Below, one piece after another: positions 8,598 through 63,848 of a DNA stretch of 64,000 nt. The translations under genes were made by a program, and so were the position numbers. The stretch spans positions 71 through 64,070 of the forward strand of contig RPRQ01000022.1 in assembly GCA_003818205.1 (NCBI GenBank). Direction: 5' to 3'. The notes under the pieces were generated by a model. The model was not told where the DNA came from and did not search any database. It worked only from the letters and a program-made list of their open reading frames with translations. The stretch's first letter is position 1. The number at the start of each line of letters is the position of its first letter. The DNA is from Bacteroidales bacterium (GTDB lineage Bacteria > Bacteroidota > Bacteroidia > Bacteroidales > Tenuifilaceae).

Positions 8598-9692
8598 ATG
8601 AAAAAAATTCTTTTCGTATCCGGTTTACTACTATTAATCGGAGCATGTCAATCGCAATCATACAAATTTGCGGTATTGTGCGATACCAGAAGCGATGCGG
8701 ATAAAAATGGGATTACCGGAGTAAATGTATCTGCCGTTAAAGGGGTATGTAGCCATCTAAAGAATTCGGGGGCTGAGTTTGTTTTAGCCCCGGGCGATTT
8801 TATTTGTGGTAATGTAACCTGGTATAATTCAACAAAAACACCTCCCGACAATCAGACCCAGTATCAGGCATTTTTAACCGCTTGTCGATCGGTAGGCGTT
8901 GGTTTGCCTAGTGATAATGACAAAATTGCGCTCTATGCCGTACGAGGCAACCATGAATGTTACCAGCAGATTCTGCCTAAAAAAACCATTGAGGAAGCCT
9001 GGTTAAAGAGTATTGGTTACTCACTACCCAAGAATGGCCCTGATAAAGAGATAGGTTTCACCTATAGCTTTGTTTACAAGGGCTCATTGTTTATTGGTTT
9101 GGATCAATATATACATGCAAATGCAGCCCAAAAAGATAGCATAACCATTGATCAGAAGTGGTTAGATAAGGAGTTACTCAAATACCCCGACTCCAAACAT
9201 GTATTCGCTTTTGGACATACCCCTGCTTTTGCTGCTCAACATCAGGATTGTTTGGGACAAGACTCAATCGCCAGAAATAAATTTTTACAATCGATAAACA
9301 GTCGTTCAGGTGTTTATTTCTGTGGGCACGATCATTTCTATGCACGAGCCGATGTTCCGGTTTACAAACCGAATGGTGGAATCGAAAACTATATGCAGCA
9401 GGTAATCACCCCGAGTGGTGCTCCTTTCCTTGGAGGATTCAGCCCTAAGTGGAATGGTGAGTACAAGAATCAAAGTGTAAAAACAGAATCATACATCGAC
9501 AATGCCGTGGGATATCAGCTGGTAACTGTTGATGGGAATAAGGTCACCGTTGAGTTTATTGCCACTAATGATGCATGTACATTTACTATCGATTCTACCG
9601 GAGCGTATTCCTATACCTATAATGATAACTGGCAAAAATGGAATTTTGTAACAATGTCAAAGTTTTCATATGAATTACCGATAGGAAAGTAA
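8598..9692 (+). CDS. Secreted metallophosphoesterase lipoprotein (calcineurin-like)
   Basis: The lipobox reads LLLIGAC. The motifs GDFICGN, VRGNHE, GHTPAF and GHDHFY are present. Confidence 0.75.
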   Translation: MKKILFVSGLLLLIGACQSQSYKFAVLCDTRSDADKNGITGVNVSAVKGVCSHLKNSGAEFVLAPGDFICGNVTWYNSTKTPPDNQTQYQAFLTACRSVGVGLPSDNDKIALYAVRGNHECYQQILPKKTIEEAWLKSIGYSLPKNGPDKEIGFTYSFVYKGSLFIGLDQYIHANAAQKDSITIDQKWLDKELLKYPDSKHVFAFGHTPAFAAQHQDCLGQDSIARNKFLQSINSRSGVYFCGHDHFYARADVPVYKPNGGIENYMQQVITPSGAPFLGGFSPKWNGEYKNQSVKTESYIDNAVGYQLVTVDGNKVTVEFIATNDACTFTIDSTGAYSYTYNDNWQKWNFVTMSKFSYELPIGK

Positions 9693-9743
9693 AAGCACAA
9701 AAAGATGAGTTGTTTAATCTTGAGCAATAGAAAAATGTAACTA

Positions 9744-9915
9744 CTCACCACGGAGATCACAGAGGTTTGTTTCATTAATCACAGAACAGTAACCTTGATT
9801 AGTTCTTTTAAACGTACAAAACAAATACATTTTATTTGAGCAGTCGTCATGCCAGAAATAGATTAATATTTGTTTTTATTCTCATTTGTTCTCTGTGATC
9901 TCTGTGTCTCCGTGG
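9744..9915. repeat. Inverted-repeat-bounded ~170-bp element (cacggagatcacagag arms)
   Basis: The left arm is ctcaccacggagatcacagagg and the right arm is ctctgtgatctctgtgtctccgtgg. It belongs to the same word family as 2841-2899. Confidence 0.6.
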
Positions 9916-9993
9916 TTTTTGTTCATTTCGACTACTGGTGAATAGTTACGAAAAAATAAGTACAAGTATATTTTAAAAACTAAAAAAATAACA

Positions 9994-11922
9994 ATGGAAA
10001 CAAAATACGGATACATGGGCAGAATCCTTTGGATAGACTTAACTAAAGGTACGTTTAAGGATGAAAAAATCCCTGATAAGGTATATGAAGACTTTCTGAG
10101 TGGTTATGGACTAGCATCTAAAGTTATTTACGAGAACCAGCCCATTGGTATTGACTATCGCGATGAACGTAGCATAATTTCTGTTATGAGCGGTATTTTA
10201 ACCAATACAGATGCTGGCTTCAACGGTCGTTGGATGCTAGCAGGGAAAAGTCCTTTAACAGGATGCTGGGGTGATGCAAACTGTGGTGGCAATTTTGGAC
10301 CTTCGATAAAGAGGAGTGGCTACGATGGGATTTTTATCACAGGAAAAAGCGATAAGCCGGTTTATATTTATATCGATGATAAACACAAACAAATTCTACC
10401 CGCAGAAGAATTATGGTCCCGTAAAGATGCTGTTGAGACAGAGGATATTCTGATAAAAAAGCACGGTAAGGATGCAAAGGTAATCTGTATTGGCAGTGCG
10501 GGTGAAAATTGCTCGCTCATCTCGGGTGTTGTAAACGACGGCGGTCGCCTTGCGGCACGAAGCGGATTAGGTGCCTTGTTTGGTGTTAAGCAGCTGAAAG
10601 CCATTTGTCTCAATGGTTCTCAAAAGGTTTATGAGCATAATAAAGCGGAGGTACGGAAAGCAACCGTTGAGCTAGCTAATGCATTAAACAATTCTACAGA
10701 TTCATTTTGTACTACAATGAAGTGGTCGGGAACAGCAGGTACTACCGACGACTCCGTTAAAACAGGTGATTCGCCAATAAAAAATTGGGCAGGTGTTGCC
10801 AAAGATGATTTTCCGCAAGAAAAAGCGTCAAAGATTAGTGGGTATTCAGTAACAAAGTATCAGGAAAAGGAATACTACTGTGCTGACTGCACATTTGGTT
10901 GCGGTGGAATTTGTTCCGTTAAACATAATCCATTACTGAAAAAAACGCATCGCCCAGAATACGAAATACTAGCCGGATTTGGTGCTTTAGTGCTATGCGA
11001 TGATGTGATGGCCATATTCGAAATCAATGAAAAGTTAAACCGAGCAGGTTTCGATGCCATTAGCGTTGCAACAACCGTAGGATGGGCTTTCGAAGCCTAT
11101 GAAAAAGGATTGTTTAAAGATAAGTTTCCAAAAATAAAGCTTAAATGGGGTGATTCGAAAGCCTTAGTTGAATTGGTGGACGATATTATTGCGAATAAGA
11201 ACCTTGGAGCCTATTTAAAGGATGGCGTAAAAAAAGCGGCTGAGTATTTTGATAAAGAGGGAAAAACAGCCCCAATGCACGTGCATGGTCAGGAACTTCC
11301 AATGCACGATTCGCGCAAAGATGGCTCTTTGAGCCTTGGTGTTGGCTATGAAGTTGAGCCCACTCCGGGTCGTCATACATCCACAAATGCGCAATGGGAG
11401 CAAATGGCCGATACGCATAGTGCCGATGCCGTATTGAATGATAATAAGTTGAATATTAAATTCCAGAAAAGGTATTTACATACAGATATGTCGCACGAGG
11501 AGCAGGGGCAGGATTTAATGGCTGCTAGCTGTTCAGAAGATATTATAAACGGCGCAGGACTATGTAACTTTAGCTTTATGGGACCTTATGTTCCTGTGGT
11601 ATCCTGGCTGAATAATGTTACCGGATGGAATAAATCCTTTGAAGACTATATAGAAATAGGCAGAAGAATAAAAACAGTTCGTCATTCATTTAATATCCGA
11701 GAGGGAATTGATGTAGCCAATATAAAAGCTCCCAGTAGGGCTAAAGGAGATAATACTCTGAAAGATGGACCCAATGCCTATAGCGCTAATGTATTGAAGT
11801 GGGATGACGCAAAAGCCGATTATTATATCTCCATGGGATGGGATGTTGATACCGCTAAACCATCAGCTCAAACCCTAAAAGATTTGGGATTAGGCTTTGT
11901 TGCTAAAGATCTTTATAAATAA
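9994..11922 (+). CDS. Aldehyde:ferredoxin oxidoreductase family (tungsto/molybdopterin AOR)
   Basis: The N-terminus MGRILWIDLTKG is AOR-typical. A CxxCxxxC cluster (YYCADCTFGC) and the GAGLCNF motif are present. The length (642 aa) fits the family. Confidence 0.85.
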   Translation: METKYGYMGRILWIDLTKGTFKDEKIPDKVYEDFLSGYGLASKVIYENQPIGIDYRDERSIISVMSGILTNTDAGFNGRWMLAGKSPLTGCWGDANCGGNFGPSIKRSGYDGIFITGKSDKPVYIYIDDKHKQILPAEELWSRKDAVETEDILIKKHGKDAKVICIGSAGENCSLISGVVNDGGRLAARSGLGALFGVKQLKAICLNGSQKVYEHNKAEVRKATVELANALNNSTDSFCTTMKWSGTAGTTDDSVKTGDSPIKNWAGVAKDDFPQEKASKISGYSVTKYQEKEYYCADCTFGCGGICSVKHNPLLKKTHRPEYEILAGFGALVLCDDVMAIFEINEKLNRAGFDAISVATTVGWAFEAYEKGLFKDKFPKIKLKWGDSKALVELVDDIIANKNLGAYLKDGVKKAAEYFDKEGKTAPMHVHGQELPMHDSRKDGSLSLGVGYEVEPTPGRHTSTNAQWEQMADTHSADAVLNDNKLNIKFQKRYLHTDMSHEEQGQDLMAASCSEDIINGAGLCNFSFMGPYVPVVSWLNNVTGWNKSFEDYIEIGRRIKTVRHSFNIREGIDVANIKAPSRAKGDNTLKDGPNAYSANVLKWDDAKADYYISMGWDVDTAKPSAQTLKDLGLGFVAKDLYK

Positions 11923-23329: not shown

Positions 23330-23603
23330 TCCTCATTTCAACGTAATCTTGTGCGAAGGCAAAGGAGTGCTGGCAGACTATAGCGTAACTAAGGGATGGT
23401 TTACTAACACATCCAATACATTAAAGCCAAGTATTATGTTTTGACCTATGAATCAACTTTAATGGCTGTGTTTTTTATCGTATTGACATAAAAAAATGAT
23501 GAAAAACGGAAATTGTAATATCTGGAAATTCCCATGATTCAGCAACTAAAATTTATTTAACGACGGATATAAATACCACAAATTCAAAAATTTAGCAAAT
23601 AAG

Positions 23604-23650
23604 AGGCTGTCTCTAAAGTCGAACAAGACTGGAATAGACAGCCTTTTTTA
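23604..23650 (+). terminator. Hairpin plus T-run, about 275 nt downstream of sodC
   Basis: aggctgtct..(inner agtc/gact)..agacagcct is followed by tttttt. Confidence 0.55.
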
Positions 23651-24471
23651 AGTTTGAGTAAAACTACCACCGGCTGAGCCAGTGGTTTTAATATCAGAGC
23701 CCCCTAAAGAGGGGAAATCAATTATTCTCATCATAACGTTCTTCATCTTCTTGACATTTTACATACCGCCTAAAACTCGCATTGGGAATACACATGCTAG
23801 CGTTTAATTCCTTAAACGACATTGATATATAATTATTGCTTATCATAAGGGCTAGGTTTTGAGCAAGCGGGTGGGAACGGCATCCGATGCCCGAAGGGCG
23901 AACTCAGCGAAGCTAAAACGGTGAACCAGAGCATGCCCTGATCGTAGGCAGGAAGCGAGAGGCAGCATTGCTTCGATTTGAACTTTTTTTGTTTCAAGAC
24001 AAAAAAAGGAAGGGGGCAGGGTCAAAGTCCCATTGGATTTTAGTCGGACAATAATGATTTTAAATAATCAATAACTCAAAAAAATGAAGTATATTTCAAC
24101 AAACAAAAAAGGAAACTATTCAGCAGTAGTCGAATTGAACAAAAACCACTGAAACACAGCCCGTCCCGATGTATCGGGAGTGGCAATTATAAAAAACGAC
24201 TGAGTATCATACGAAATATATAAAAATACGAACCTGCCCGCCGAGCTTAGGCAGGCGTGTCTCTGCGATGAGTAGTTACAAAATATAAACCGAAATCATT
24301 AATAATTGTTATGGCTATTGCAGCATCACCTCATAAAACAAGCCGAATTAAAGAAAGGTTTATAGAATGCTAAATGTAAACATCCAAATGAACAATTCAT
24401 CGTGGTTTCTTTTGGCATTATTATTCCAACGGGAAATACTTCATATATTTATCTACAGATATTAATTGTCT

Positions 24472-25698
24472 ATGAGTGAACTTGTAAAAATATTGGTTGC
24501 AGATGATTCGCCGTCTATTCAGCTATCGATTCAGAGCATGCTTATGGCAGATCAGTCTAACAAGTATTTAATACATAATGTTAATGATGGAAGGCAGGCC
24601 TGTATTATGGCTTTAAATGAAAGACCAGACCTTATTTTAATAGACATTGAAATGCCTGTTATGGATGGTATTGATGCCATAAAGAAAATAAAAACACACA
24701 ACCTTTTAAAAGATATCCCGATTATTGTTATGTCATCGAGTCGCAAATTTCAGGAGGCATTTATAGCTGGAGTCGATGATTTTTTGATTAAGCCTTTTAA
24801 TCAATACGAATTATTGCTCCGAATACAGCTTAATCTAAAGTTAGCCAATATCTCTGCTGAGTTAAAAAATCAGAATGAATTGCTAGTATTACAAAAGCAG
24901 GAGGTTACTCAGCAAAAAGAATTAATTGAAAAGCAACAAATAGATTTACTCTCGGGCATACGTTATGCAAGCTATATACAGAAAGCCATATTGCCAGAAG
25001 ATGTTCTTATTGATGAATTGTTTTCTTCGAATTTTATTCTTAACAAACCTAGAAGTATTGTTAGCGGAGATTTTTATTGGGTTACCCAAAAGAACGATCT
25101 TAAGTTTTTTGCTGTAGGAGACTGTACTGGACACGGTATTTCGGGAGCACTAATGACAATGGCAGGTATTGCTTTCTTAAACGAGATTGTTAATGATTAC
25201 AACGAGTACGAAGCAGATAAAATATTAAACGAGTTACGTTTAAGGGTTGAAAAACTTCTACATCAAAGAGGTACAGCAGGTGAAGCCTCTAATGGTATGG
25301 ATATTGCCCTTTGTGTTTATAACAGCAAAAAACGAATAATTCAATATGCTGGTGCAAATAATCCAATTTATATTATACATGCTGATAAATCATTAGATGT
25401 CTTTAAAGCCGACCGAATGCCTGTTGGTATTCATTTTAATCATGAACGTCCCTTTACTAGTAAAGAATGTATAATTAGTCAAGGTGATGAGGTATATCTA
25501 TTCTCAGATGGTTTTCCTGATCAATTTGGTGGATCAAACGGACAAAAATTCAGATATGATCAGTTTCGTGAACTTCTTATCAGGTGCTCTAGTTCACCTA
25601 TGAATGAACAGCTAAAGATATTGGAAAACACTCTCGATGATTGGATGATAGGATTTGAGCAAATAGATGACATCTTAGTTATGGGTATAAAATTTTAG
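24472..25698 (+). CDS. Response-regulator receiver fused to a PP2C/SpoIIE phosphatase (RsbU-like)
   Basis: The REC domain shows ILVADDS, LILIDIEMPVMDG and KP. The PP2C domain shows VSGDFYWV, GDCTGHGISGA, LFSDGFPDQ and DDILVMGIKF. ATG at 24472 is preferred over the tracked TTG at 24466. Confidence 0.85.
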   Translation: MSELVKILVADDSPSIQLSIQSMLMADQSNKYLIHNVNDGRQACIMALNERPDLILIDIEMPVMDGIDAIKKIKTHNLLKDIPIIVMSSSRKFQEAFIAGVDDFLIKPFNQYELLLRIQLNLKLANISAELKNQNELLVLQKQEVTQQKELIEKQQIDLLSGIRYASYIQKAILPEDVLIDELFSSNFILNKPRSIVSGDFYWVTQKNDLKFFAVGDCTGHGISGALMTMAGIAFLNEIVNDYNEYEADKILNELRLRVEKLLHQRGTAGEASNGMDIALCVYNSKKRIIQYAGANNPIYIIHADKSLDVFKADRMPVGIHFNHERPFTSKECIISQGDEVYLFSDGFPDQFGGSNGQKFRYDQFRELLIRCSSSPMNEQLKILENTLDDWMIGFEQIDDILVMGIKF

Positions 25699-25780
25699 TT
25701 GTCAATTTTTTCAACTAATTGTTAGCAACAAGTGTAAAAGGCAAGTACGAAACATGAAAATAAACCTATAAGTTGATTTA

Positions 25781-26296
25781 ATGAAAATTGATTGTATCTT
25801 TGCAGAAAATTTATTCACCTTTCATTACGCGAAAGAAAAGAACAATGAGTATGAAAGATTAATGGATATATGGACAGATGTTAGTTATTTACATGCTTAT
25901 GCAAAAAGAAACAAGGTAAAAAATATTTATGGATTTATTGATGACATATTGAAGTGTGCTGAAAAAATTCAAGACTTTTTGGACAACATTAGCCAAAACA
26001 AAGAACCTTTTGGTTCTTACTTTGAACCTTTACAACAATCAGAAAATGACAACAAAGTGCTCGCACTTCAAAAAGGAAAAATACGAAAAAATCAACTTCG
26101 TTTGTATGCAGTTAAAATAGATGCTAATTGTTTTGTAATAACAGGAGGTGCAATAAAAATGAGTCAAAAAATGGAAGACCACCCTGATACCGCAAATGAA
26201 TTGGAAAAATTGAAAAAAGCAAGAATCTATTTAAACCAAAATGGTGTATTTGACGAGGATTCTTTTTTTGAACTATTAAATGAAGAATATGACTAA
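25781..26296 (+). CDS. Putative toxin (RelE/HigB, Gp49-like C-terminal half) of a three-gene cassette
   Basis: LRLYAVKIDANCFVITGGAIKMSQKMEDHPDTANELEKLKKARIYL resembles the R.lY....g..v.L.g..KK....p..ei..A motif of Gp49/HigB-type toxins. The gene overlaps the next one by 17 nt. Confidence 0.4.
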   Translation: MKIDCIFAENLFTFHYAKEKNNEYERLMDIWTDVSYLHAYAKRNKVKNIYGFIDDILKCAEKIQDFLDNISQNKEPFGSYFEPLQQSENDNKVLALQKGKIRKNQLRLYAVKIDANCFVITGGAIKMSQKMEDHPDTANELEKLKKARIYLNQNGVFDEDSFFELLNEEYD

Positions 26297-26750
26297 CAAA
26301 GAAAAGTTTTTAGCCTTAGTTTCTAAAGAAAAAAACAACACTTTAGAAAAAAACAAAGAGCGAATCAAAAACAGAGCAATGTTGAGTGAATCGCAACAAA
26401 TTGCTATGAAGGTATTGAAGAAATTAGACGAGTTAGGGTGGACCCAAAAAAACTTGGCAAAAGCAATGGAAGTAAGTCCGCAACATGTGAATAAAATAGT
26501 TAGCGGAAAGGAAAACCTTACAATTGAAACTCAAATTAAATTGCAAAATATTCTTGATATTCCAGTATTAGCCAGTTATTATGAATCACGTTTGAAATCA
26601 ATTGAAGAATTGATTCTAACAGTTGAAAAGAAAGTTGAGCGCATCTATGCTACAACAAATCTAGTTCCTGTTAATTATCAAGATTCAAGAAAAATTAAAA
26701 TGGAATACGATACTTTATCAGGTGAGTACTCATATCAATTAGCTGTATAA
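26280..26750 (+). CDS. XRE-family HTH protein (putative antitoxin with a ~65-aa C-terminal extension)
   Basis: The HTH reads LGWTQKNLAKAMEVSPQHVNKIVSGKENLTIETQIKLQNIL. It shares one base between its stop codon and the next ATG. Confidence 0.7.
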   Translation: MKNMTNKEKFLALVSKEKNNTLEKNKERIKNRAMLSESQQIAMKVLKKLDELGWTQKNLAKAMEVSPQHVNKIVSGKENLTIETQIKLQNILDIPVLASYYESRLKSIEELILTVEKKVERIYATTNLVPVNYQDSRKIKMEYDTLSGEYSYQLAV

Positions 26751-27196
26751 TGAAAAAAGAAAATGCACAAATAGGTTTTGCGTTGTTAGGTATTAAGACT
26801 GAGCAATTTGCAGTTTTCGAAGAAAATTATAACCCTAAACAAGAAACCGGTTTGGGTTTAGAAATTCAATACAAAATAAACAAATCCAACAACCAAATTG
26901 GCGTTTTTTTAGGATTTGAATTTATTCAATCAAAAAAAGTATTTATTAAAGTAATTGTGAGTTGTCACTTCAAAATTGAAGAAAATTCTTGGAAGAGTTT
27001 TCTTCAAGAAAAAGAAACTAAGTTAGTTGTTCCAAGAGGTTTTCTTGAACACCTAGCAATGATTGCTACAGGTACAACTAGAGGTGTTTTATTTGCAAAA
27101 ACAGAAGGAACCGAGTTTTCAAAATTTATCATCCCAACTTTAAATGTTGCCAAAATGATAAAAGAAGATGCCATATTCGAAATAGGGAATGAATAG
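26750..27196 (+). CDS. Possible SecB-like chaperone
   Basis: At 148 aa, the order of segments parallels E. coli SecB. FALLGIKTEQFAVFE lines up with FQIQRIYTKDISFE. The central strands are VFIKVIVSCHFKIE. FIIPTLNVAKMI lines up with LAPVNFDALF. This is similarity by eye only. Confidence 0.4.
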   Translation: MKKENAQIGFALLGIKTEQFAVFEENYNPKQETGLGLEIQYKINKSNNQIGVFLGFEFIQSKKVFIKVIVSCHFKIEENSWKSFLQEKETKLVVPRGFLEHLAMIATGTTRGVLFAKTEGTEFSKFIIPTLNVAKMIKEDAIFEIGNE

Positions 27197-27459
27197 TTGC
27201 AATTTACGAATTAATTAAAACACTCGTTGCCAACATAGATTCACTGATTATGAAAGAGATGTAATACCAAACTGCTAATATGATATTGAAAATAATTATG
27301 TTAGCGAATCGGTATAAATTAGAAAATCTGTGAACAAAGCGAAGCGATTTCATGAACACCTTATAAAAAATGACAATTTGTGAATAATCAGTGGCAATAT
27401 TTACTGTAAAGACAGACTCTAATTAACTGGTAGATTTTTTTTGTATTTTAAACTATTTT

Positions 27460-29313
27460 ATGAGAACAGTTAAAGGACTTGTTTTGAGATTATGGTTTCC
27501 AAAAATTAATTTTCAGAAGCGAAGATTTGCGAGTTCTCTTTTATATCCTGGGGCATTTTTTCAGCTACCTATAACCCAATTATTATTACTCTTACTCCTT
27601 GTTTTGCCAATATTTGTCAATGGGCAAGAAAGTATAAATGAATTTGAAGTTTTAGCCAATGAGTATCTAAATCAAGGGAAATACAAACAAGCTGCGGAAT
27701 CTTTCAACAAATCAGGCTACGATTATCGGAATAGAGGGAATAAAAGGAAGGCTGCCGATGTATTTGAGAAAGCGTATAAACTTTTCGATAAAGAGGGTAA
27801 CGATAATGTATCAATCGAAATCAGTAACAACCTAGGCATAGTATATCTCGACGAAAATAAATACGCAAACGCATACACTGCTTTCTCCAATACGTTAAAA
27901 CATGCTCGAAGAGTAAAGGATACGACCGAAATATTTAATTCATTAATCAATGTAGGTAGTTTAGCTATTGAATTATCATTATATTCCAATGCTATTGATA
28001 AAGTGAATGAAGCGCTAGGGATAGCAAAAGAACGGAACAATAATAAATATTTAAAAGAATGTTACAGTTTACTTGCAAGGAGCTATGAGAGAATTGGAAA
28101 TACTTCAAGTGCAAACGAGTTTTACAAGCTATACTCGATTATTGATCAGCAAATTAATAATATTGAGCCTGAAGAAATAAGTTCAGCTTCGAATAATAAG
28201 TTTAGCATATTGAAAAAAGAGAGGCAGATAGCAGAAATTCGACCAAAATTTAAAAATGGAGAATTGAGGTTAACTCCAGATTCAATGGCAAGGATATCAC
28301 AATTACTTCAACAAATGTTAACGCAAATAGGGCTTCGTAACTCACAGCTCAGACAGAAAGAGATACAACTACAGTACGAGAAACATATACGCAGAACCCT
28401 TATTATTGGAATTATTGTAGTTTTAATCTTCCTGGTCATACTCGGTTTTTTACTCAGACAGAAACAGCTCTATAATAAAATATTAAAGCAGCAAAAGGAG
28501 GAAATTACGCAACAGCGAAATAAACTCGATGTTCAGAATAAAAAAATAACAGACAGTATTTACTTCGGGTTACGTATTCAACAGGCTATTTTACCAAGAA
28601 TGAAAGAATTAAATAAGGTCTTTGAAACATTACTTATTTATAAGGCAAAGGATATAGTGTCAGGCGATTTCTATTGGTATCACGAATCAATTATTGATGA
28701 AGTAACATATCATTTTATTGCTGTAGTAGATTGTACTGGGCATGGCGTGCCAGGCGCTTTTATGTCCATTATTGGAAACAGGATACTTAACGAGATTATA
28801 ATAGAACGTAGAATTTTTAACCCCTCTGAAATTTTAATTGAAGTCAATAAGCTTCTCAGGAGGGATCTGGAACAGGACAACAATAAAACAATAAGCGGAA
28901 TGGATATCGCTCTGTGTCGGATTTCTTTTAACAATGGATATAACGAACTTGCTTTTTCAGGAGCTAAACGTGAGATTATCATATATAAAGCGAATACTGG
29001 TACACAGGAAATAATACATGGAGATAAATTATCGATTGGTTGCTTAACATCTGGGAAAACAAATATCTTTAATGAAACGAAAAGAGATATTGATGCTGGT
29101 GATATTATTTTTATGTTTACCGATGGTATTATCGACCAGCCAAATATAGAAAGAAAACGATTTGGCACAGAACGATTTATGAACTTTATAGCTGAAAATA
29201 TTGATTCCTCTATGGATAATATTGAATCGTCTCTTGAGTCATTAATTGACAATTATAAGGAGTCGGAAGAACAGAGGGATGATATTACTGTTTTGGGTAT
29301 TAAATTGAAATAG
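27460..29313 (+). CDS. Transmembrane TPR-sensor PP2C/SpoIIE phosphatase (SiaA/RsbU-like)
   Basis: It has a signal/anchor, TPR-like repeats and a TM helix (TLIIGIIVVLIFLVILGFLL). PP2C motifs follow: VSGDFYWY, VDCTGHGVPGA, MFTDGIIDQ and DDITVLGIKL. Confidence 0.85.
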   Translation: MRTVKGLVLRLWFPKINFQKRRFASSLLYPGAFFQLPITQLLLLLLLVLPIFVNGQESINEFEVLANEYLNQGKYKQAAESFNKSGYDYRNRGNKRKAADVFEKAYKLFDKEGNDNVSIEISNNLGIVYLDENKYANAYTAFSNTLKHARRVKDTTEIFNSLINVGSLAIELSLYSNAIDKVNEALGIAKERNNNKYLKECYSLLARSYERIGNTSSANEFYKLYSIIDQQINNIEPEEISSASNNKFSILKKERQIAEIRPKFKNGELRLTPDSMARISQLLQQMLTQIGLRNSQLRQKEIQLQYEKHIRRTLIIGIIVVLIFLVILGFLLRQKQLYNKILKQQKEEITQQRNKLDVQNKKITDSIYFGLRIQQAILPRMKELNKVFETLLIYKAKDIVSGDFYWYHESIIDEVTYHFIAVVDCTGHGVPGAFMSIIGNRILNEIIIERRIFNPSEILIEVNKLLRRDLEQDNNKTISGMDIALCRISFNNGYNELAFSGAKREIIIYKANTGTQEIIHGDKLSIGCLTSGKTNIFNETKRDIDAGDIIFMFTDGIIDQPNIERKRFGTERFMNFIAENIDSSMDNIESSLESLIDNYKESEEQRDDITVLGIKLK

Positions 29314-29321
29314 ATAGAAAA

Positions 29322-29843
29322 GTGGCTTTATCAAGTACATATAACGATTTATTAATCTCGTATTACGGGCCTTTCAGTATGCGAATAATCTCCACAATTG
29401 GTAAACATCTCACTGAAAACATAAATGCATCAGAAATTACGAAGATGAAGCTGTATAGGGTGTTTATTGAACTCTGTCAAAATGTTGCACGCTATTCAGC
29501 TGAAAGACATGTTTTACTTGATAGCTCAATTATTGGTGTAGGAACCATTCATATTCAAAATAACGACTTGTATTTCAAATGCACAACAGTAAATAGGATT
29601 TTAAGCGAACATCAAAATGTATTAATAAAGAATTGTCGTGAAATTAACAGCTCTACAAAAGAAGACCTGAAAAAAAGAAAAGAAAAGTTTCGAAAAGAAT
29701 CTACTATTCTTGATACTGGAGCTCACATTGGTTTAATAGCAGTATGCTTGTATTCAGAAAATCAATTTGAATTCGACGTTACAGATAACCCTGAAAACAG
29801 TGCTACCTATTTTTCAATTACTGCAACTATCAATAAAACATAG
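29322..29843 (+). CDS. SiaB-like small protein kinase (RsbW/GHKL-type)
   Basis: Its position between a PP2C gene and a DUF1987 gene fits. It has an N-box-like FIELCQNVARYS and a G-box-like LDTGAHIGL. The GTG start lies 8 nt after the upstream stop, so the start is uncertain. Confidence 0.55.
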   Translation: MALSSTYNDLLISYYGPFSMRIISTIGKHLTENINASEITKMKLYRVFIELCQNVARYSAERHVLLDSSIIGVGTIHIQNNDLYFKCTTVNRILSEHQNVLIKNCREINSSTKEDLKKRKEKFRKESTILDTGAHIGLIAVCLYSENQFEFDVTDNPENSATYFSITATINKT

Positions 29844-29918
29844 AATGCAACGATCATATCTTTTCAAAATATAAATTATCTTTACAAAACGGAAAGAAAT
29901 CATTAAATAACAAGTAGA

Positions 29919-30308
29919 ATGGAAAGCCTATATATCAATAGTTATCCCGATTTGGTTTTTTTCCCCATTGTTGATTTTAAATACCAAACTGGGGTGTGTG
30001 AAATTTCAGGTGAATCGTACATGGAGGATACTTATAGTTTTTATGAACCTGTAATTATCTGGCTAAGGGAATATATGCAGGAGAAAAAACCAATCATCTT
30101 TAATGTTAAGTTAACCTATTTCAATACCAGCTCATCCAGATTTATACTTGAAATGCTTGATTTATTCAAAAAATACCTGAATGAAGGGAATCAAGTTATT
30201 GTTAACTGGTACTATAAAAAGGACGATCCCGATATGTTAACAGAAATCAACGAATTAATCGATGAGTCTGGAGTCGACATCAATATTTATACAGTAACCC
30301 TTCAATAA
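29919..30308 (+). CDS. SiaC-family / DUF1987 regulatory phosphoprotein
   Basis: At 129 aa, it carries the hallmark KLTYFNTSSSRFILEML and the C-terminal WYYKKDDPDM. Confidence 0.75.
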   Translation: MESLYINSYPDLVFFPIVDFKYQTGVCEISGESYMEDTYSFYEPVIIWLREYMQEKKPIIFNVKLTYFNTSSSRFILEMLDLFKKYLNEGNQVIVNWYYKKDDPDMLTEINELIDESGVDINIYTVTLQ

Positions 30309-30466
30309 TAACTTTTTAACGAATTTACTCGTCAACTTATCCGCTATTGGTAACCCAAAACTTACCCTAATTGCCTAATTATCAAATTATCAAATTGTCA
30401 AATTATCATATTAATAAATTTTCAAATTAAACATCCTATCTTTGCGCCCCGAAAGAGATTCCTAAA

Positions 30467-32047
30467 ATGAGTTTAGAAAAAGAGATAAAAAGGCGTAGAA
30501 CCTTTGCCATTATTAGCCACCCCGATGCTGGTAAAACCACTTTAACCGAAAAATTGCTTCTTTTTGGGGGGGCAATCCATATTGCGGGTGCGGTAAAAAG
30601 TAATAAGATTAAGAAAACCGCAACCTCCGACTTTATGGAGATTGAGCGTCAGCGCGGTATTTCGGTTTCGACCGCCGTAATGGGTTTTGAGTATAAAGAT
30701 GTCAAGATAAATATCCTCGATACCCCTGGCCACGAGGACTTTGCTGAGGATACCTACCGTACGCTAACAGCTGTAGATAGCGTAATCATTGTAATCGATC
30801 AAGCTAAAGGCGTTGAGACGCAAACCCGCAAGCTGATGAACGTTTGCCGGATGCGAAACACTCCGGTAATTGTATTTATCAATAAGATGGATCGAAATGG
30901 TAAAGATCCATTCGAGCTACTCGATGAGATTGAAAGCGAGCTGAAGATTAAGGTTCGCCCATTAAGCTGGCCCATCAGTTCTGGTCCAACATTTAAGGGG
31001 GTTTACAACCTTTTTGAGCAGAAGCTTTGCCTATTCTTCTCGGAGGACAAGCAATCATTATCCGATGATGTCATTAAATTTGATGATGTTAATAGCCCTG
31101 AGCTCGATCAGTATATCAAACCCTTCACCGATAGATTTAGAGAGGAATTGGAGCTCGTTAAAGGTGTCTATCACGATTTTGAAATTAACAGGTATTTGAG
31201 CGGAGAGCTCGCTCCCGTATTCTTCGGTAGCGCATTGAATAATTTTGGGGTACAGGAGCTGCTCGATTGCTTTATCCAAATTGCACCACATCCACGACCT
31301 ACGGTTACTGATGCTCGTGAAATTTCACCATTTGAGGAGAAATTAACAGGCTTCGTTTTCAAGATATTCGCCAATATGGATCCAAACCACAGGGATCGAT
31401 TGGCTTTCCTAAAGATATGCTCTGGTACTTTTGAAAGGAATAAGTTCTTTCACCATGTAAGGCTCGATAAGAATTTCAAATTCTCAAGTCCAAACGCCTT
31501 TATGGCCGATAAAAAATCGATTGTCGATTTTGCATATCCAGGCGATATCATTGGTCTGCACGATACAGGTAGCTTTAGAATTGGTGATACGCTAACCGAA
31601 GGAGAAATACTTAAATTTAAAGGTATCCCAAATTTTTCACCCGAGCTATTCCGCTATATCGAGAATGCTGACCCAATGAAGTCAAAACAACTTGCGAAGG
31701 GTGTCGATCAGCTAATGGACGAAGGGGTTGCTCAGCTATTTATCCAGAAATCTAATGGCCGTAAGATTATTGGAACCGTTGGTGCGCTCCAGTTTGAGGT
31801 CATTCAGCATCGCTTGGAGCATGAGTATAGCGCAACCTGTAGGTACGAATCAATCAGCTTGCATAAGGCATGCTGGATTGAGAGCGATAATAAGACCCAA
31901 ATTGAAGATTTCCGCAAGCGTAAATTCAACAACCTTGCAGTTGATAAGCATGGTAGAGAGGTTTTTCTAGCCGATTCACCATACTCTTTACAAATGGCAC
32001 AGGAGAAATTTCCGGATATTAAATTCTATTTTACCTCGGAATTCTGA
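30467..32047 (+). CDS. prfC: Peptide chain release factor 3
   Basis: [37 protein letters not shown] and NKMDR are present, and the full length (526 aa) fits. Confidence 0.95.
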
Positions 32048-32124: not shown

Positions 32125-33681
32125 TTAATAAAAATGCCTTATCCGTTTCTGAGTTTTTTCCTGTATTACTTCCTGAACATTTCTCCTTTCTATCTTGCTC
32201 TCAAGCCACGAAAGGATATCAAAATACATGAAAGCTCTCTTCTCGTAGGTTGTTTGCTCCAGCGGTAACAGCTGGTCGTGCAAATCTTGGAAAGCCTCGG
32301 GCAGCTGAGCAGGGGTGATGCTTCCCAATCGTTTTAGGAATTTAAGAACAATCTTTTGGAAAAGGTGTAAATCCTCCTTTTTAGCCAAAAATCTGTATGT
32401 TGATTTTATATGGTAATCGATTAAATCCATATTTTTCAGCTCGTAATGGCTTATAAGGCTCAGGATACGTGCAAAACATAGTATATCTGAGCGTAAATCC
32501 AAATCCTTATCATTTATAACCTGGTTAAGCCAATAGATAACCTTGCTGTGTTGGCTATCGCCAAAATACATACAGGCGAACTTGTAGTAGAATATAAGGA
32601 TGTAGTGCTTATCAAGCCTATCCCTAAACTTCTCTAGGTCTTCTGAAATCTCAGGAATAGTCTTTGTTCCCTCGGTAAATTCGCCAAGTAAAAAGTATTT
32701 ATTGATTTTATGGGTTGACCCATATTTAAATAGGAGTAATTCTATATTCGGTGTAACCGTCAAATCAGGAACATTTGCTATTGAATCGAATTTTTCCACC
32801 GTAACAAGGAATTCATCGTATTTCGAAAGCTTCTCCTGTGCCAAAAGCAGATTGTTAATCGACTTGATGTACATCTCTATCTTAGGCAGGATATACTGTG
32901 GATTCGAATCAAATAACGACACCATCTTTTGTGCATACTCGTATCCCCGTTGAAAATCTTGGGTGAAGAAGTAGTAGCCCGTGAATGTATTATAAAGGTG
33001 CATCTTCTCGGTAAACGATAGGAGCTCCTCCTTAAAAACGGGTAATGTACTGTAAAGAAAACTGTTGGCTAGTTCAAACTCCTTTTGATTTCGTATAAAC
33101 CCTATCTTAATGTAGAACGAGTATAGCTTAAGCGTTAGATTCGAAAAATCTGAGATATTCGAAAGTTTATCCTTTAACGAATCTATCTCGCATATCAATC
33201 TGGTTACATGCTCCTCGATGTTTGTCTTTATAAACCTAGTTACTAGCTTCTTTTCCAAATCCAATATCTCATAAAGCAGATAATTCTTATCGTATTTAAT
33301 GGCTAACGCCTTTGCCTTTTCGAGCATCTTAATGCTCTGATCGTACAAACACCTATTATATAGAAGTTGAGTATAGTCAACCATCTCTCGAATAGTTAAG
33401 TAAATGCTATTCTCCGGATTAGTAATTCGCAAGCTCTGTAGAATCTGTTTATACAGGTGAGCCTTAAGGTTCGATAGCTGGGCTGGTTTAAGCTCTTTCT
33501 CTTTCTCTAGGATTTTCTCCTCATCGTACTCCTTATGCTTATCGATATAATCGAAAAGGATGATATACTTTAAATCTTCGGGGTTACCGTTACGGGAGGC
33601 GTAAATCTTGAACGAACGCTTCTCTGCTTTGGTTAACGATTTAATTAGGTAGTATAAAGGGTCGATATTGCCGTTGGACAT
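32125..33681 (-). CDS. Hypothetical alpha-helical (TPR-like) protein
   Basis: It is a long uninterrupted ORF with repetitive helical character. I recognise no motif. Confidence 0.4.
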   Translation of the reverse strand: MSNGNIDPLYYLIKSLTKAEKRSFKIYASRNGNPEDLKYIILFDYIDKHKEYDEEKILEKEKELKPAQLSNLKAHLYKQILQSLRITNPENSIYLTIREMVDYTQLLYNRCLYDQSIKMLEKAKALAIKYDKNYLLYEILDLEKKLVTRFIKTNIEEHVTRLICEIDSLKDKLSNISDFSNLTLKLYSFYIKIGFIRNQKEFELANSFLYSTLPVFKEELLSFTEKMHLYNTFTGYYFFTQDFQRGYEYAQKMVSLFDSNPQYILPKIEMYIKSINNLLLAQEKLSKYDEFLVTVEKFDSIANVPDLTVTPNIELLLFKYGSTHKINKYFLLGEFTEGTKTIPEISEDLEKFRDRLDKHYILIFYYKFACMYFGDSQHSKVIYWLNQVINDKDLDLRSDILCFARILSLISHYELKNMDLIDYHIKSTYRFLAKKEDLHLFQKIVLKFLKRLGSITPAQLPEAFQDLHDQLLPLEQTTYEKRAFMYFDILSWLESKIERRNVQEVIQEKTQKRIRHFY

Positions 33682-56106: not shown

Positions 56107-57933
56107 ATGGGAAATCCTTTTAATATTCTTGCTTTTCCTAAAAGAAAAAGTATTCTTATACTTTTGTCAATTATCCTTATATCATTTTCATTTACCTCAG
56201 AAATCTTTGCCCAAAAAGGGTTAACTTGCTTTGTGAAGCTAATTGTACGTAAAAGTGATTCCAGCGGAGCAAAGATTGTTTTATCAAAAAATGGAACTAC
56301 AGTTCAAGAGGTTTTCGCCAAAAAAAGCGGTCGTTTCGAGGTTGTACTTGAATATGGTAGTGTTTTTATCCTCTCATTCGAGAAAAAAGGGTTTGTTTCA
56401 AAGAAAATTGAAATTAATACTACCGTACCTGACCTATTTCCAAAGGATGTAGAGAATATAAAAGATTTTGATGTTGAAATCTTTCCACAAAAAGATGGTG
56501 TAAACGTAATGGTTTATAACAATCCGGTAGGAAAAATTAGATACGAAGAGGCAACAGGCGATTTTGGCTACGATACCGATTACTCGGCTACCATTAAAAA
56601 GCAGATCGATCAGGTTGATAAGGACATGGCTCAAAAGGAGAAGGAGCAGGAGAAGCAAGAAAAAAAGAAGATTGATGATGCTAATAAAGAGAAACTTTTA
56701 GCTGAGGCAAGCCTAAGAAAGGAAGAAACTGAAAAAAAGAAAAAAGCCGAGGAGGAGCAGAAGCAGAAGGAGATAGTACAGCAAAAAGCCATTGCAGAAG
56801 CAAAATTGCTTGCAGAAGTTAAAAAGAAAGAGGAGCAGAAGAAACAAGAGCTTGAGCTAAAGCAAAAGGCTGAGGAGGATGCAAAGAAAAAGGTCGAGGA
56901 GGAGACCCGTTTAAAGGAAGAGGCTCGTAAAAAGGAAGAGGCACGGATAAAGGAAGAGAATGAGAAGCGTATGCTTGCTGAACAAGAAAAGAAGAGAATA
57001 GATGAGGAGAATAAGCTGAAAGAGCAGGAAAAACTTAAAAAAGAGCTGGAAGTAAGACTAGCCGCTGAAACGAAGCTAAAGGAAGAAGCAAAGCAAAGGG
57101 AGCTAGAGCAAAGGAAAAAAGCAGAAGAGGAGGCACGATTAAAAGCCGAAACCGAAGCGAAGCAGAAAGAAGAAGCTATTAAGAGGGCGGAAGAGCTGAA
57201 GAAGAAAACCGAAGAGGAAGTTCGTCTAAAAGCAGAGCAGGAAGCGTTACTAATGGCTGAGAAGAAGAAGCTCGATGAGGAACGGATTAAGGCTGAAAAT
57301 CAGAAAATTCAGCAGGAAAAAAATGAAAGACTTCGGATTGAGCAGGAGAATAAAATAAAAGAGCAGGAGCGGCTAGATAAAGAAGCGGAGGAACGACGAT
57401 TGGCTGAACTAAAGCTTAAAGAAGAAAATCAGAAAAAGATTGAGGAGTCTAGAAAGCAAGCTGAGGAGCTAGCTCTGGTTAAAGCTGCTGAGGAGTCGAA
57501 AAGGGCTGATGAACAGAAAAGAATCGAAAGGGAACGTTTGGAGAAGGAGGATGAGGAACGAAAGGTTCTTGAAGAGAAACGTTTAAGGGAAAAAGAGGAA
57601 ACCGAAAAGAATGAAAAGGAAAGAATGAAGAAGGAGGATGAAGAACGAAAATTGAAGATTATTTCAGAAAAAATTGTTAACGATAGAAAGTATCAGGAAG
57701 CAAAAGATGAAGTATTTAAGGTGATTCCACCTGAAGAGCTTGCTAAAAAGTATTCGAATGAACGCTCCGATGAGGTCACTAAGCTGAAAAGGCTAACCAT
57801 TACCAGAACAGTATTCAACCGAAATAAAGCTCTTACCTTTTATACGAAGGTTGAGCACATATATGGCGGTGTTTACTACTTCAAGGATGCATTCGATATT
57901 TCAGAATGGCAATACAAGAATGATACAAAATAG
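56107..57933 (+). CDS. Membrane-anchored protein with a ~340-aa E/K/R-rich single-alpha-helix-like region
   Basis: An N-terminal hydrophobic anchor is followed by a beta-sandwich-like domain (KIVLSKNGTTVQEVFAKKSGRFEVVLEYGSVFILSFEKKGF). Residues ~175-515 are almost purely E/K/R/A/Q. A ~90-aa C-terminal domain follows. Confidence 0.6.
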   Translation: MGNPFNILAFPKRKSILILLSIILISFSFTSEIFAQKGLTCFVKLIVRKSDSSGAKIVLSKNGTTVQEVFAKKSGRFEVVLEYGSVFILSFEKKGFVSKKIEINTTVPDLFPKDVENIKDFDVEIFPQKDGVNVMVYNNPVGKIRYEEATGDFGYDTDYSATIKKQIDQVDKDMAQKEKEQEKQEKKKIDDANKEKLLAEASLRKEETEKKKKAEEEQKQKEIVQQKAIAEAKLLAEVKKKEEQKKQELELKQKAEEDAKKKVEEETRLKEEARKKEEARIKEENEKRMLAEQEKKRIDEENKLKEQEKLKKELEVRLAAETKLKEEAKQRELEQRKKAEEEARLKAETEAKQKEEAIKRAEELKKKTEEEVRLKAEQEALLMAEKKKLDEERIKAENQKIQQEKNERLRIEQENKIKEQERLDKEAEERRLAELKLKEENQKKIEESRKQAEELALVKAAEESKRADEQKRIERERLEKEDEERKVLEEKRLREKEETEKNEKERMKKEDEERKLKIISEKIVNDRKYQEAKDEVFKVIPPEELAKKYSNERSDEVTKLKRLTITRTVFNRNKALTFYTKVEHIYGGVYYFKDAFDISEWQYKNDTK

Positions 57934-63681: not shown

Positions 63682-63754
63682 TGATCCAGCTGGGATTCGA
63701 ACCCAGGACCCCATCCTTAAAAGGGATGTGCTCTACCAACTGAGCTACTGAATC
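63682..63754 (-). tRNA. tRNA-Lys (anticodon UUU)
   Basis: The reverse complement reads GATTCAGTAGCTCAGTTGGTAGAGCACATCCCTTTTAAGGATGGGGTCCTGGGTTCGAATCCCAGCTGGATCA. It has a 7-bp acceptor stem, anticodon stem CATCC/GGATG, loop CTTTTAA and T-loop TTCGAAT. Confidence 0.9.
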
Positions 63755-63775
63755 GATAGGATTTCGTTTCTTTCG

Positions 63776-63848
63776 TGATCCAGCTGGGATTCGAACCCAG
63801 GACCCCATCCTTAAAAGGGATGTGCTCTACCAACTGAGCTACTGAATC
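63776..63848 (-). tRNA. tRNA-Lys (anticodon UUU), second tandem copy
   Basis: Its sequence is identical to 63682-63754 as far as I can read. Confidence 0.9.

Follow-up and report, generated by a model that had tools for sequence, protein, structure and literature searches.

A probable SiaA/SiaB/SiaC-type partner switch of a Bacteroidales bacterium, with two candidate sensor phosphatases and without a neighbouring cyclase gene

What does a phosphorylation-driven partner switch control when no gene for a target lies beside it? In Pseudomonas aeruginosa, the kinase SiaB phosphorylates SiaC at Thr68 and the phosphatase SiaA removes the phosphate, and only unphosphorylated SiaC binds the stalk of the diguanylate cyclase SiaD, via Thr68 and helices α2/α3 (PMC7278518; PMC7647112; PMC8457831). 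SiaABC has so far been known only as the switch of this one diguanylate cyclase in one Pseudomonas species, and searches of one literature library for DUF1987, DUF6272 and partner switching in Bacteroidetes yielded nothing beyond the P. aeruginosa work. The question is raised here by a 64,000-nucleotide (nt) stretch of DNA from a Bacteroidales bacterium (the window, which is the sole part of the genome analysed), in which the genes of a fused response-regulator receiver and PP2C phosphatase (REC-PP2C), three inserted genes, and the genes of a TPR-containing transmembrane PP2C (TPR-PP2C), a SiaB-family kinase and a SiaC-family protein stand in this order ahead of prfC. We consider it probable that these genes encode a SiaA/SiaB/SiaC-type threonine-phosphorylation partner switch, served by two sensor phosphatases and without a linked cyclase, the unlinked target of which is probably not a cyclase.

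The four module proteins match their family profiles with expectation (E) values of 1e-20 to 1e-35, which rule out chance as the source of the matches, and PDB sequence searches returned the Sia proteins of P. aeruginosa as their sole significant relatives. All open reading frames (ORFs) listed in the initial annotation of this DNA were found where it had placed them. Conservation was assessed in alignments of 82 distinct SiaC, 63 kinase, 17 REC-PP2C and 32 TPR-PP2C sequences, and gene order in a sample of about 85 related loci of the clade, with SiaC identities of 46-74%, assembled from a genome scan, a metagenome scan and single-homologue look-ups.

The 129-residue SiaC-family protein belongs to PF09345 (DUF1987; 122 bits against a Pfam gathering score of 24.5); the initial annotation had already called it a DUF1987 protein and noted its YFNTSSS segment. 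It matches P. aeruginosa SiaC (6kko_C) at E 1.7e-12 and reaches 77 bits against the NCBIfam equivalog model NF038265, under the cut-off of 150. The predicted phospho-acceptor is Thr70, which pairs in the alignment with Thr68, the residue phosphorylated in P. aeruginosa SiaC; both Thr70 and Asn69 are invariant in the 82 distinct clade sequences. In the AlphaFold model (predicted local distance difference test score, pLDDT, 91.3) Thr70 stands at the N-terminus of the helix formed by residues 70-88 (α2). Foldseek places apo-SiaC (6kkp) first, with template-modelling (TM) scores of 0.87-0.93 and a root-mean-square deviation (rmsd) of 1.5 Å, the top matches together (6kkp, 6kko_C/D and 7e6g) spanning TM scores of 0.85-0.93 and rmsd values of 1.3-1.6 Å.

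Separated from the SiaC gene by 75 nt is the gene of the 173-residue kinase, the GTG start codon of which falls 8 nt past the stop codon of the TPR-PP2C gene; the initial annotation had read this pair correctly as a TPR-sensor transmembrane PP2C followed by a small kinase. Its tentative assignment to SiaB is borne out by the NCBIfam model NF038262, 'SiaB family protein kinase' (107.9 bits, cut-off 85), by PF19788 (79.5 bits, cut-off 26.6) and by a full-length match to P. aeruginosa SiaB (6kko_A, E 5.9e-7), while the score against the SiaB equivalog NF038264 is 54.5 bits, under the cut-off of 225. The SiaB/GHKL-like fold, on which the kinase proposal had been staked, is present in the predicted structure (pLDDT 87.6): SiaB 6kko_A is the first Foldseek match (TM score 0.74-0.76), and the anti-sigma kinases UsfX, SpoIIAB and RsbW rank next. 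Residues Glu50, Asn54, Gly72, Gly74 and Gly137 are invariant in 63 sequences, and the segment IELCQN aligns to IEMTQN of P. aeruginosa SiaB (an ExxxN motif), which puts Glu50 at the position of Glu61, the predicted catalytic residue of the Pseudomonas kinase (PMC7647112).

The public gene call for this kinase, a 132-residue 'hypothetical protein EHM93_08190' starting at Met42, is truncated and is corrected by the GTG codon at 29322. This start adds back 41 conserved N-terminal residues, including the invariant Gly16 and Pro17; the regained N-terminus is modelled confidently as a strand and a helix, and the length becomes typical of SiaB homologues.

Both phosphatases carry an intact SiaA-type PP2C domain with its metal-binding Asp residues, and for both the closest solved structure is the PP2C domain of P. 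aeruginosa SiaA (6k4e_A). The GDFY, DCTGHG, DG..D and DD motifs are invariant among the orthologues of each, and both cover about positions 391-658 of the SiaA equivalog profile NF038263, of which the N-terminal part is a membrane/HAMP region. In the TPR-PP2C, a signal or anchor segment, the TPR domain, a transmembrane helix, a coiled-coil linker and the PP2C domain (PF07228, 89 bits) follow one another; since two hydrophobic segments (residues 30-55 and 308-337) flank the TPR region, the TPR domain is predicted to lie outside the cytoplasm, in the periplasm, and the PP2C domain inside it. This protein scores 147 bits against NF038263 (cut-off 700), over its C-terminal 270 residues only, and matches 6k4e_A at E 8e-27 (98 bits); its metal-binding residues and DxxGHG are invariant across 32 orthologues. 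The soluble REC-PP2C joins a receiver (PF00072, 78 bits) to a PP2C domain (PF07228, 73 bits) through a coiled-coil linker and scores 167 bits against NF038263, likewise under the cut-off. Its PP2C half is nearer to SiaA-PP2C than that of the TPR protein (110 versus 98 bits; E 1.3e-30), and Asp60, Lys109, the metal-binding Asp residues and DxxGHG are invariant in 17 orthologues. Furthermore, residues 9-357 match the entry 3eq2, RssB of P. aeruginosa.

The linkage of these genes is conserved. Across the related loci the core order is TPR-PP2C, SiaB, SiaC, and SiaB and SiaC are tied as a pair by the occurrence elsewhere of SiaB-SiaC fusion proteins, which came to light in the 150 best-scoring of 3300 representatives of the family. 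Among 27 relatives informative on the point (21 clusters at 90% SiaC identity), the REC-PP2C gene lies directly upstream of the TPR-PP2C gene on the same strand in 14 (12 clusters) and is absent from 13 (9 clusters), and in one further locus (L049) it lies downstream of SiaC. Because the adjacency recurs in this way, the REC-PP2C counts as an accessory that often belongs to the module, and chance does not account for its position. The claim that two phosphatase inputs are available gains support from the adjacency of the two phosphatase genes in these 14 relatives; the REC-PP2C may act on the 129-residue SiaC or on its paralogues, described below. Relatives also put up to three sensor PP2Cs around SiaB-SiaC, which makes several phosphatases per switch a recurring design. 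One such locus (L091, 1-11843) combines SiaB-SiaC with a 1227-residue Reg_prop/Y_Y_Y-PP2C, a 1444-residue Y_Y_Y-PAS-GAF-PP2C and a third PP2C, and another (L067, 2467-7390) holds SiaB and SiaC in two copies each, together with a 798-residue YfiR-like-PAS-PP2C. A hybrid histidine kinase gene adjoins the cluster in L011, L013 and L016/L019, and the kinases of L011, L013 and L016 may be the ones that drive the REC-PP2C.

In relatives, the head of the cluster is often taken by a gene for an Ig-like protein of 576-592 residues that has a signal peptide and matches bacterial Ig families faintly (54-62% identity between lineages). The gene occurs in 9 of the 14 loci with a REC-PP2C gene and in 1 of the 13 without, and in L052 it directly precedes the TPR-PP2C gene. 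Its product is a candidate periplasmic co-sensor. No counterpart of this 576-residue gene was detected in the window by tblastn, and no remnant in positions 23330-24465.

Two other arrangements were seen. In other loci (L060-L089) the SiaC gene comes straight after that of a PP2C of about 600 residues, and a kinase gene is missing from between the two. In Flammeovirga (L003-L007, about 9255-10351) an orphan SiaC homologue with 41-43% identity occupies the same coordinates in all five loci, with no SiaB or PP2C gene nearby; in F. pacifica (L005) it lies directly downstream of an annotated Ion_trans_2 channel gene.

The linked output gene that the Pseudomonas system would lead one to expect, a co-transcribed GGDEF-encoding siaD, is not present; the next gene is prfC, as the initial annotation reported. 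A GGDEF-like pattern, G[GAS][DE]E[FLY], was found in none of the window ORFs of at least 100 residues, and GGDEF, EAL, sigma, anti-sigma and histidine-kinase domains in none of the roughly 50 ORFs scanned against Pfam (out of 57 of at least 120 residues), which agrees with the earlier statement that GGDEF, EAL, sigma and anti-sigma genes are missing from the neighbourhood. The sole regulators returned by these scans were one TetR and one HTH_3 protein. The same holds for the relatives: across the loci scanned (768 genes, 0.77 Mb), the approximately 85 of Bacteroidales type, which make up about 0.75 Mb, have no GGDEF gene within 7-10 kb, the single match coming from a spurious Bacillus locus (L008), and no Sigma70 gene lies next to the Pfam-annotated related loci. 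The multi-domain forms in the best 150 of 3300 representatives are SiaB-SiaC fusions and SiaC tandems only, and none of them carries an effector domain. In fact, the flanking genes change between lineages (prfC, IspD, GT4/lepA, sdh and two-component genes), which argues that no output gene is linked to the module, and those that recur (sdhCAB, M24 peptidase, ispD, leuA) are housekeeping synteny. The output is encoded away from the switch, not beside it. The stronger claim of the initial annotation, that the switch is wired to a different target, is not established, having been drawn solely from the absence of a neighbouring cyclase.

Several candidate links to an output were tried and rejected. 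The 170-residue N-terminal extension of the SiaC protein in L067 is a low-complexity repeat and not an effector. A link to the BT2802-like regulator (32125-33681), suggested by a cluster shared with L060, L061 and L064, was dropped because the shared gene is leuA by Pfam, which makes the cluster plain synteny. Genes of translational GTPases occur near several clusters, 4 in 409 kb of flanks: prfC in the window, lepA in L001, an EF-G-like gene in L013 and, in L059, a distant lepA-like match (24% identity, 1043 residues). We take this proximity for coincidence, as the genes are different paralogues, are never adjacent and were spotted post hoc. Sigma-70-type promoters, Bacteroidetes -7 boxes and terminators were predicted no more often than in shuffled sequence, and the scans left one useful site, a Bacteroidetes-type -7 box, TATCTTTG (TAnnTTTG), at 30437-30444, which is 23 nt ahead of the prfC start codon.

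At the 5' side of the module, the initial annotation had put the REC-PP2C gene just upstream of the TPR-PP2C gene. The gene itself is confirmed, and its proximity was overstated, 1.76 kb and three genes lying between the two in the window, compared with 6-220 nt in relatives that have both. This split occurs in the window alone. The 156-residue product of one inserted gene matches HTH_3 (38.7 bits) and, below cut-off, a HigA-family antitoxin model; the 171- and 148-residue products have no family match, and homologues of the three genes were found in none of the related loci. Their GC content (0.296) is the lowest of the region. Rather than belonging to the module, the inserted genes break it up, and they are possibly a toxin-antitoxin-like or mobile cassette. 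Upstream of the REC-PP2C gene, 1.1 kb (23330-24465) contains no ORF above 60 residues; it has no Rfam match to a structured RNA at E values up to 1, and its GC-rich patch (23850-23990) folds no better than shuffled sequence. A 46-nt segment in it (24114-24159) repeats in inverted orientation at 9902-9947 with 91% identity.

Near the 3' end of the window, three further SiaC-family genes stand in tandem. The products of copies 1 and 2 match PF09345 at 139 and 123 bits; copy 3 aligns as a SiaC in which N-S-A-S replaces N-T-S-S. In relatives the motif is without exception YFNT(A/S)S in the first two copies and N-S-A-(S/T), with Ser in place of the acceptor Thr, in the third. The array is kept as a unit in many genomes of Tenuifilaceae and other Bacteroidales; seven related loci show it so, none with a kinase or phosphatase gene beside it, and its 1551 homologues reach 93% identity. 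Two tRNA-Lys genes follow (63682-63848 here). The same kinase and phosphatases may have these paralogues as additional substrates or outputs, which complicates assignment of the REC-PP2C to the 129-residue SiaC. The initial annotation had included neither this array nor the three-gene insertion, the Ig-like gene of relatives or their other sensor PP2Cs. The coordinates are collected below.

Table 1. Features of the module and its surroundings in the window, and of the Ig-like gene in related loci.
Feature	Position	Strand	Family match or remark
REC-PP2C, 410 aa	24466 (TTG) or 24472 (ATG)..25698	+	Response_reg + SpoIIE
Three inserted genes: 171 aa, 156 aa (HTH_3, HigA-like), 148 aa	25781..27196	+	
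TPR-PP2C (transmembrane), SiaA analogue, 617 aa	27460..29313	+	Pfam TPR_12, TPR_2, SpoIIE
SiaB-family Ser/Thr kinase, 173 aa, GTG start	29322..29843	+	NF038262, PF19788
SiaC-family phosphoprotein (predicted), 129 aa	29919..30308	+	PF09345 122 bits; YFNTSSS aa 67-73
prfC	30467-32047		next gene after SiaC
Three tandem SiaC-family paralogues, 128 + 125 + 133 aa	62335..63626	+	PF09345
Ig-like gene in relatives	L001 4666-6396; L002 4443-6221; L011 4706-6436; L012 4674-6407		

In two of the relatives (L094, 11834-15469; L096, 11924-14679) the array and the tRNA-Lys genes are followed by two DUF4252 genes, a gene for an extracytoplasmic function (ECF) sigma factor, a gene for a 204-208-residue protein and one or more further DUF4252 genes. 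This cluster is seen in 2 of the 7 array loci, and the window ends ahead of the equivalent point; it hints weakly at a link between the SiaC family and a sigma factor. Elsewhere in the window (56107-57933, plus strand), the gene immediately preceding those of a molybdopterin oxidoreductase and a Fer4/DmsC pair encodes a 608-residue protein without a Pfam match. In L094, L095, L097 and L099 this position is taken by proteins of 570-741 residues that likewise have no Pfam match.

How the switch would work can be proposed by analogy with the Pseudomonas system. The 173-residue kinase would phosphorylate Thr70 of SiaC and so keep SiaC off its target. The TPR-PP2C would remove the phosphate upon an envelope or periplasmic cue received by its TPR domain; in relatives the secreted Ig-like protein encoded with the module, for which the window has no gene, probably takes part in this step. 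The soluble REC-PP2C would remove the same phosphate once an unlinked histidine kinase had phosphorylated Asp60, so that both phosphatases would act on the same SiaC. Unphosphorylated SiaC would then bind and modulate its target via the Thr70 face and helices α2/α3, in the manner of P. aeruginosa SiaC on SiaD, and this target would be encoded elsewhere and would probably be something other than a diguanylate cyclase.

The most direct alternative on the output side is that the system is merely split, an ordinary SiaABCD circuit with its SiaD-like cyclase encoded elsewhere in the genome. The residues with which P. aeruginosa SiaC touches SiaD (Tyr65, Asn67, Thr68, Ser69, Asp79 and Asp29/Tyr31; PMC8457831) have conserved counterparts here (Tyr67, Asn69, Thr70, Ser71, Asp81 and Glu32/Tyr34), and c-di-GMP (cyclic di-GMP) synthesis with cyclase activity has been reported for one Bacteroidales species, Porphyromonas gingivalis (PMC10101095). 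However, these residues are conserved family-wide and are also required for recognition by kinase and phosphatase, so that they are uninformative on the partner; a GGDEF gene is missing near the module in all of the approximately 85 related loci, which represent many lineages, and in the first four Bacteroidetes genomes an early census of signalling proteins recorded no diguanylate cyclase (PMC1183210). A distal cyclase is thus unlikely, with a small probability left to it, as only 64 kb of the genome is visible. Of a similarly low probability is an anti-sigma logic, in which the effector, be it a sigma factor or some other protein, would be held by the kinase, with SiaC a mere antagonist like RsbV or SpoIIAA. 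After SiaB, the kinase model is indeed structurally nearest to UsfX, SpoIIAB and RsbW, and the ECF sigma and DUF4252 genes lie just past the array in two relatives. Against this, P. aeruginosa SiaB binds SiaC and not SiaD, SiaC being the effector-binding partner (PMC7278518); neither the scanned window ORFs nor the neighbourhoods of annotated SiaB-SiaC loci hold a sigma or anti-sigma gene, and the ECF cluster is seen in just two of the seven array loci.

A further doubt concerns the second input. That the REC-PP2C is a frequent neighbour only, serving not the 129-residue SiaC but other proteins such as those of the tandem array, is fairly improbable. In its favour, the gene is missing from 13 of the 27 informative loci, three genes part it from the module in the window, and in seven loci no phosphatase or kinase gene accompanies the array. 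Its direct, same-strand adjacency in 12 independent clusters, its position downstream of SiaC in L049 and the closeness of its PP2C domain to SiaA-PP2C speak for the module instead, as does the finding that the array is about ten times commoner than the module (1551 versus 144 homologues) and is therefore in general independent of it. Decay of the module in this genome to a non-functional state is highly improbable. Foreign genes do split the operon, and ORF-free DNA stands where relatives have the Ig-like gene upstream of the REC-PP2C gene, but the four ORFs are full length with every invariant catalytic and acceptor residue, and the Ig-like gene is also absent from many intact relatives. The preferred reading, a two-input switch with an unlinked and probably non-cyclase target, must itself be set against several considerations, besides the visible extent of the genome and the P. 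gingivalis report. Activity of the module in this clade is proposed from sequence, models and analogy; the equivalog cut-offs are widely missed, which makes the window proteins family relatives and not Pseudomonas orthologues; about half of the related loci do without a REC-PP2C, the insertion renders its co-regulation here uncertain, and the three array paralogues could be its real substrates; and no histidine kinase that might drive it turned up in the roughly 50 window ORFs compared with Pfam.

If the preferred reading is correct, the switch predates c-di-GMP control, has a more general use and can integrate several inputs, and the Bacteroidales SiaC target becomes an experimentally tractable question. 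The authors of the SiaC-SiaD structure suggested that DUF1987 proteins regulate 'adjacent proteins' (PMC8457831). Unlike that idea, a large Bacteroidales clade has no adjacent effector, and the only conserved neighbours of its module are sensor phosphatases and the secreted Ig-like protein. We propose tentatively, as a broader view with almost as much against it as for it, that SiaB and SiaC of Bacteroidales form a c-di-GMP-independent hub, in which several sensor PP2Cs, one kinase and up to four SiaC proteins act on a new class of target; this class would be new to partner switching, in a phylum unstudied for such Ser/Thr signalling.

Compared with known systems, the module combines features that are found apart. 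Receiver-PP2C regulators that feed partner switches include RsbY of Bacillus cereus and HsbR and RssB of P. aeruginosa; the window protein shares with them the fusion of REC to PP2C, and differs in that its PP2C half is of SiaA subtype, its gene lies near that of a membrane-bound PP2C (directly beside it in relatives) and it lacks the kinase domain of HsbR. Compared with SiaABCD of P. aeruginosa (PA0172-PA0169), the order of membrane PP2C, small kinase and DUF1987 phosphoprotein is the same, the closest solved structures of all four proteins are Sia proteins (6k4e, 6kko_A and 6kkp), and the N-T-S-S loop that leads into helix α2 carries the predicted acceptor Thr, as it does in the Pseudomonas protein. 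The window differs in having no siaD/GGDEF gene in the operon or in 64 kb, in a phosphatase sensor that is a TPR domain, predicted to be periplasmic, on a protein that matches the SiaA model over its C-terminal 270 residues only, in sequence identities of 22-27% with the three NCBIfam equivalog cut-offs unreached, and in the addition of a receiver-controlled second PP2C and three further SiaC paralogues. In B. subtilis, two sensor PP2Cs, RsbU and RsbP, act on one phosphoprotein, RsbV, which the small GHKL-type kinase RsbW re-phosphorylates; this kinase doubles as an anti-sigma factor and the output is sigma-B. The convergence of two sensor PP2Cs on one phosphoprotein is the arrangement proposed here, whereas the window has no linked sigma factor, its phosphoprotein is of the SiaC family and not a canonical STAS protein and, by analogy with P. 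aeruginosa, that phosphoprotein would itself be expected to bind the effector.

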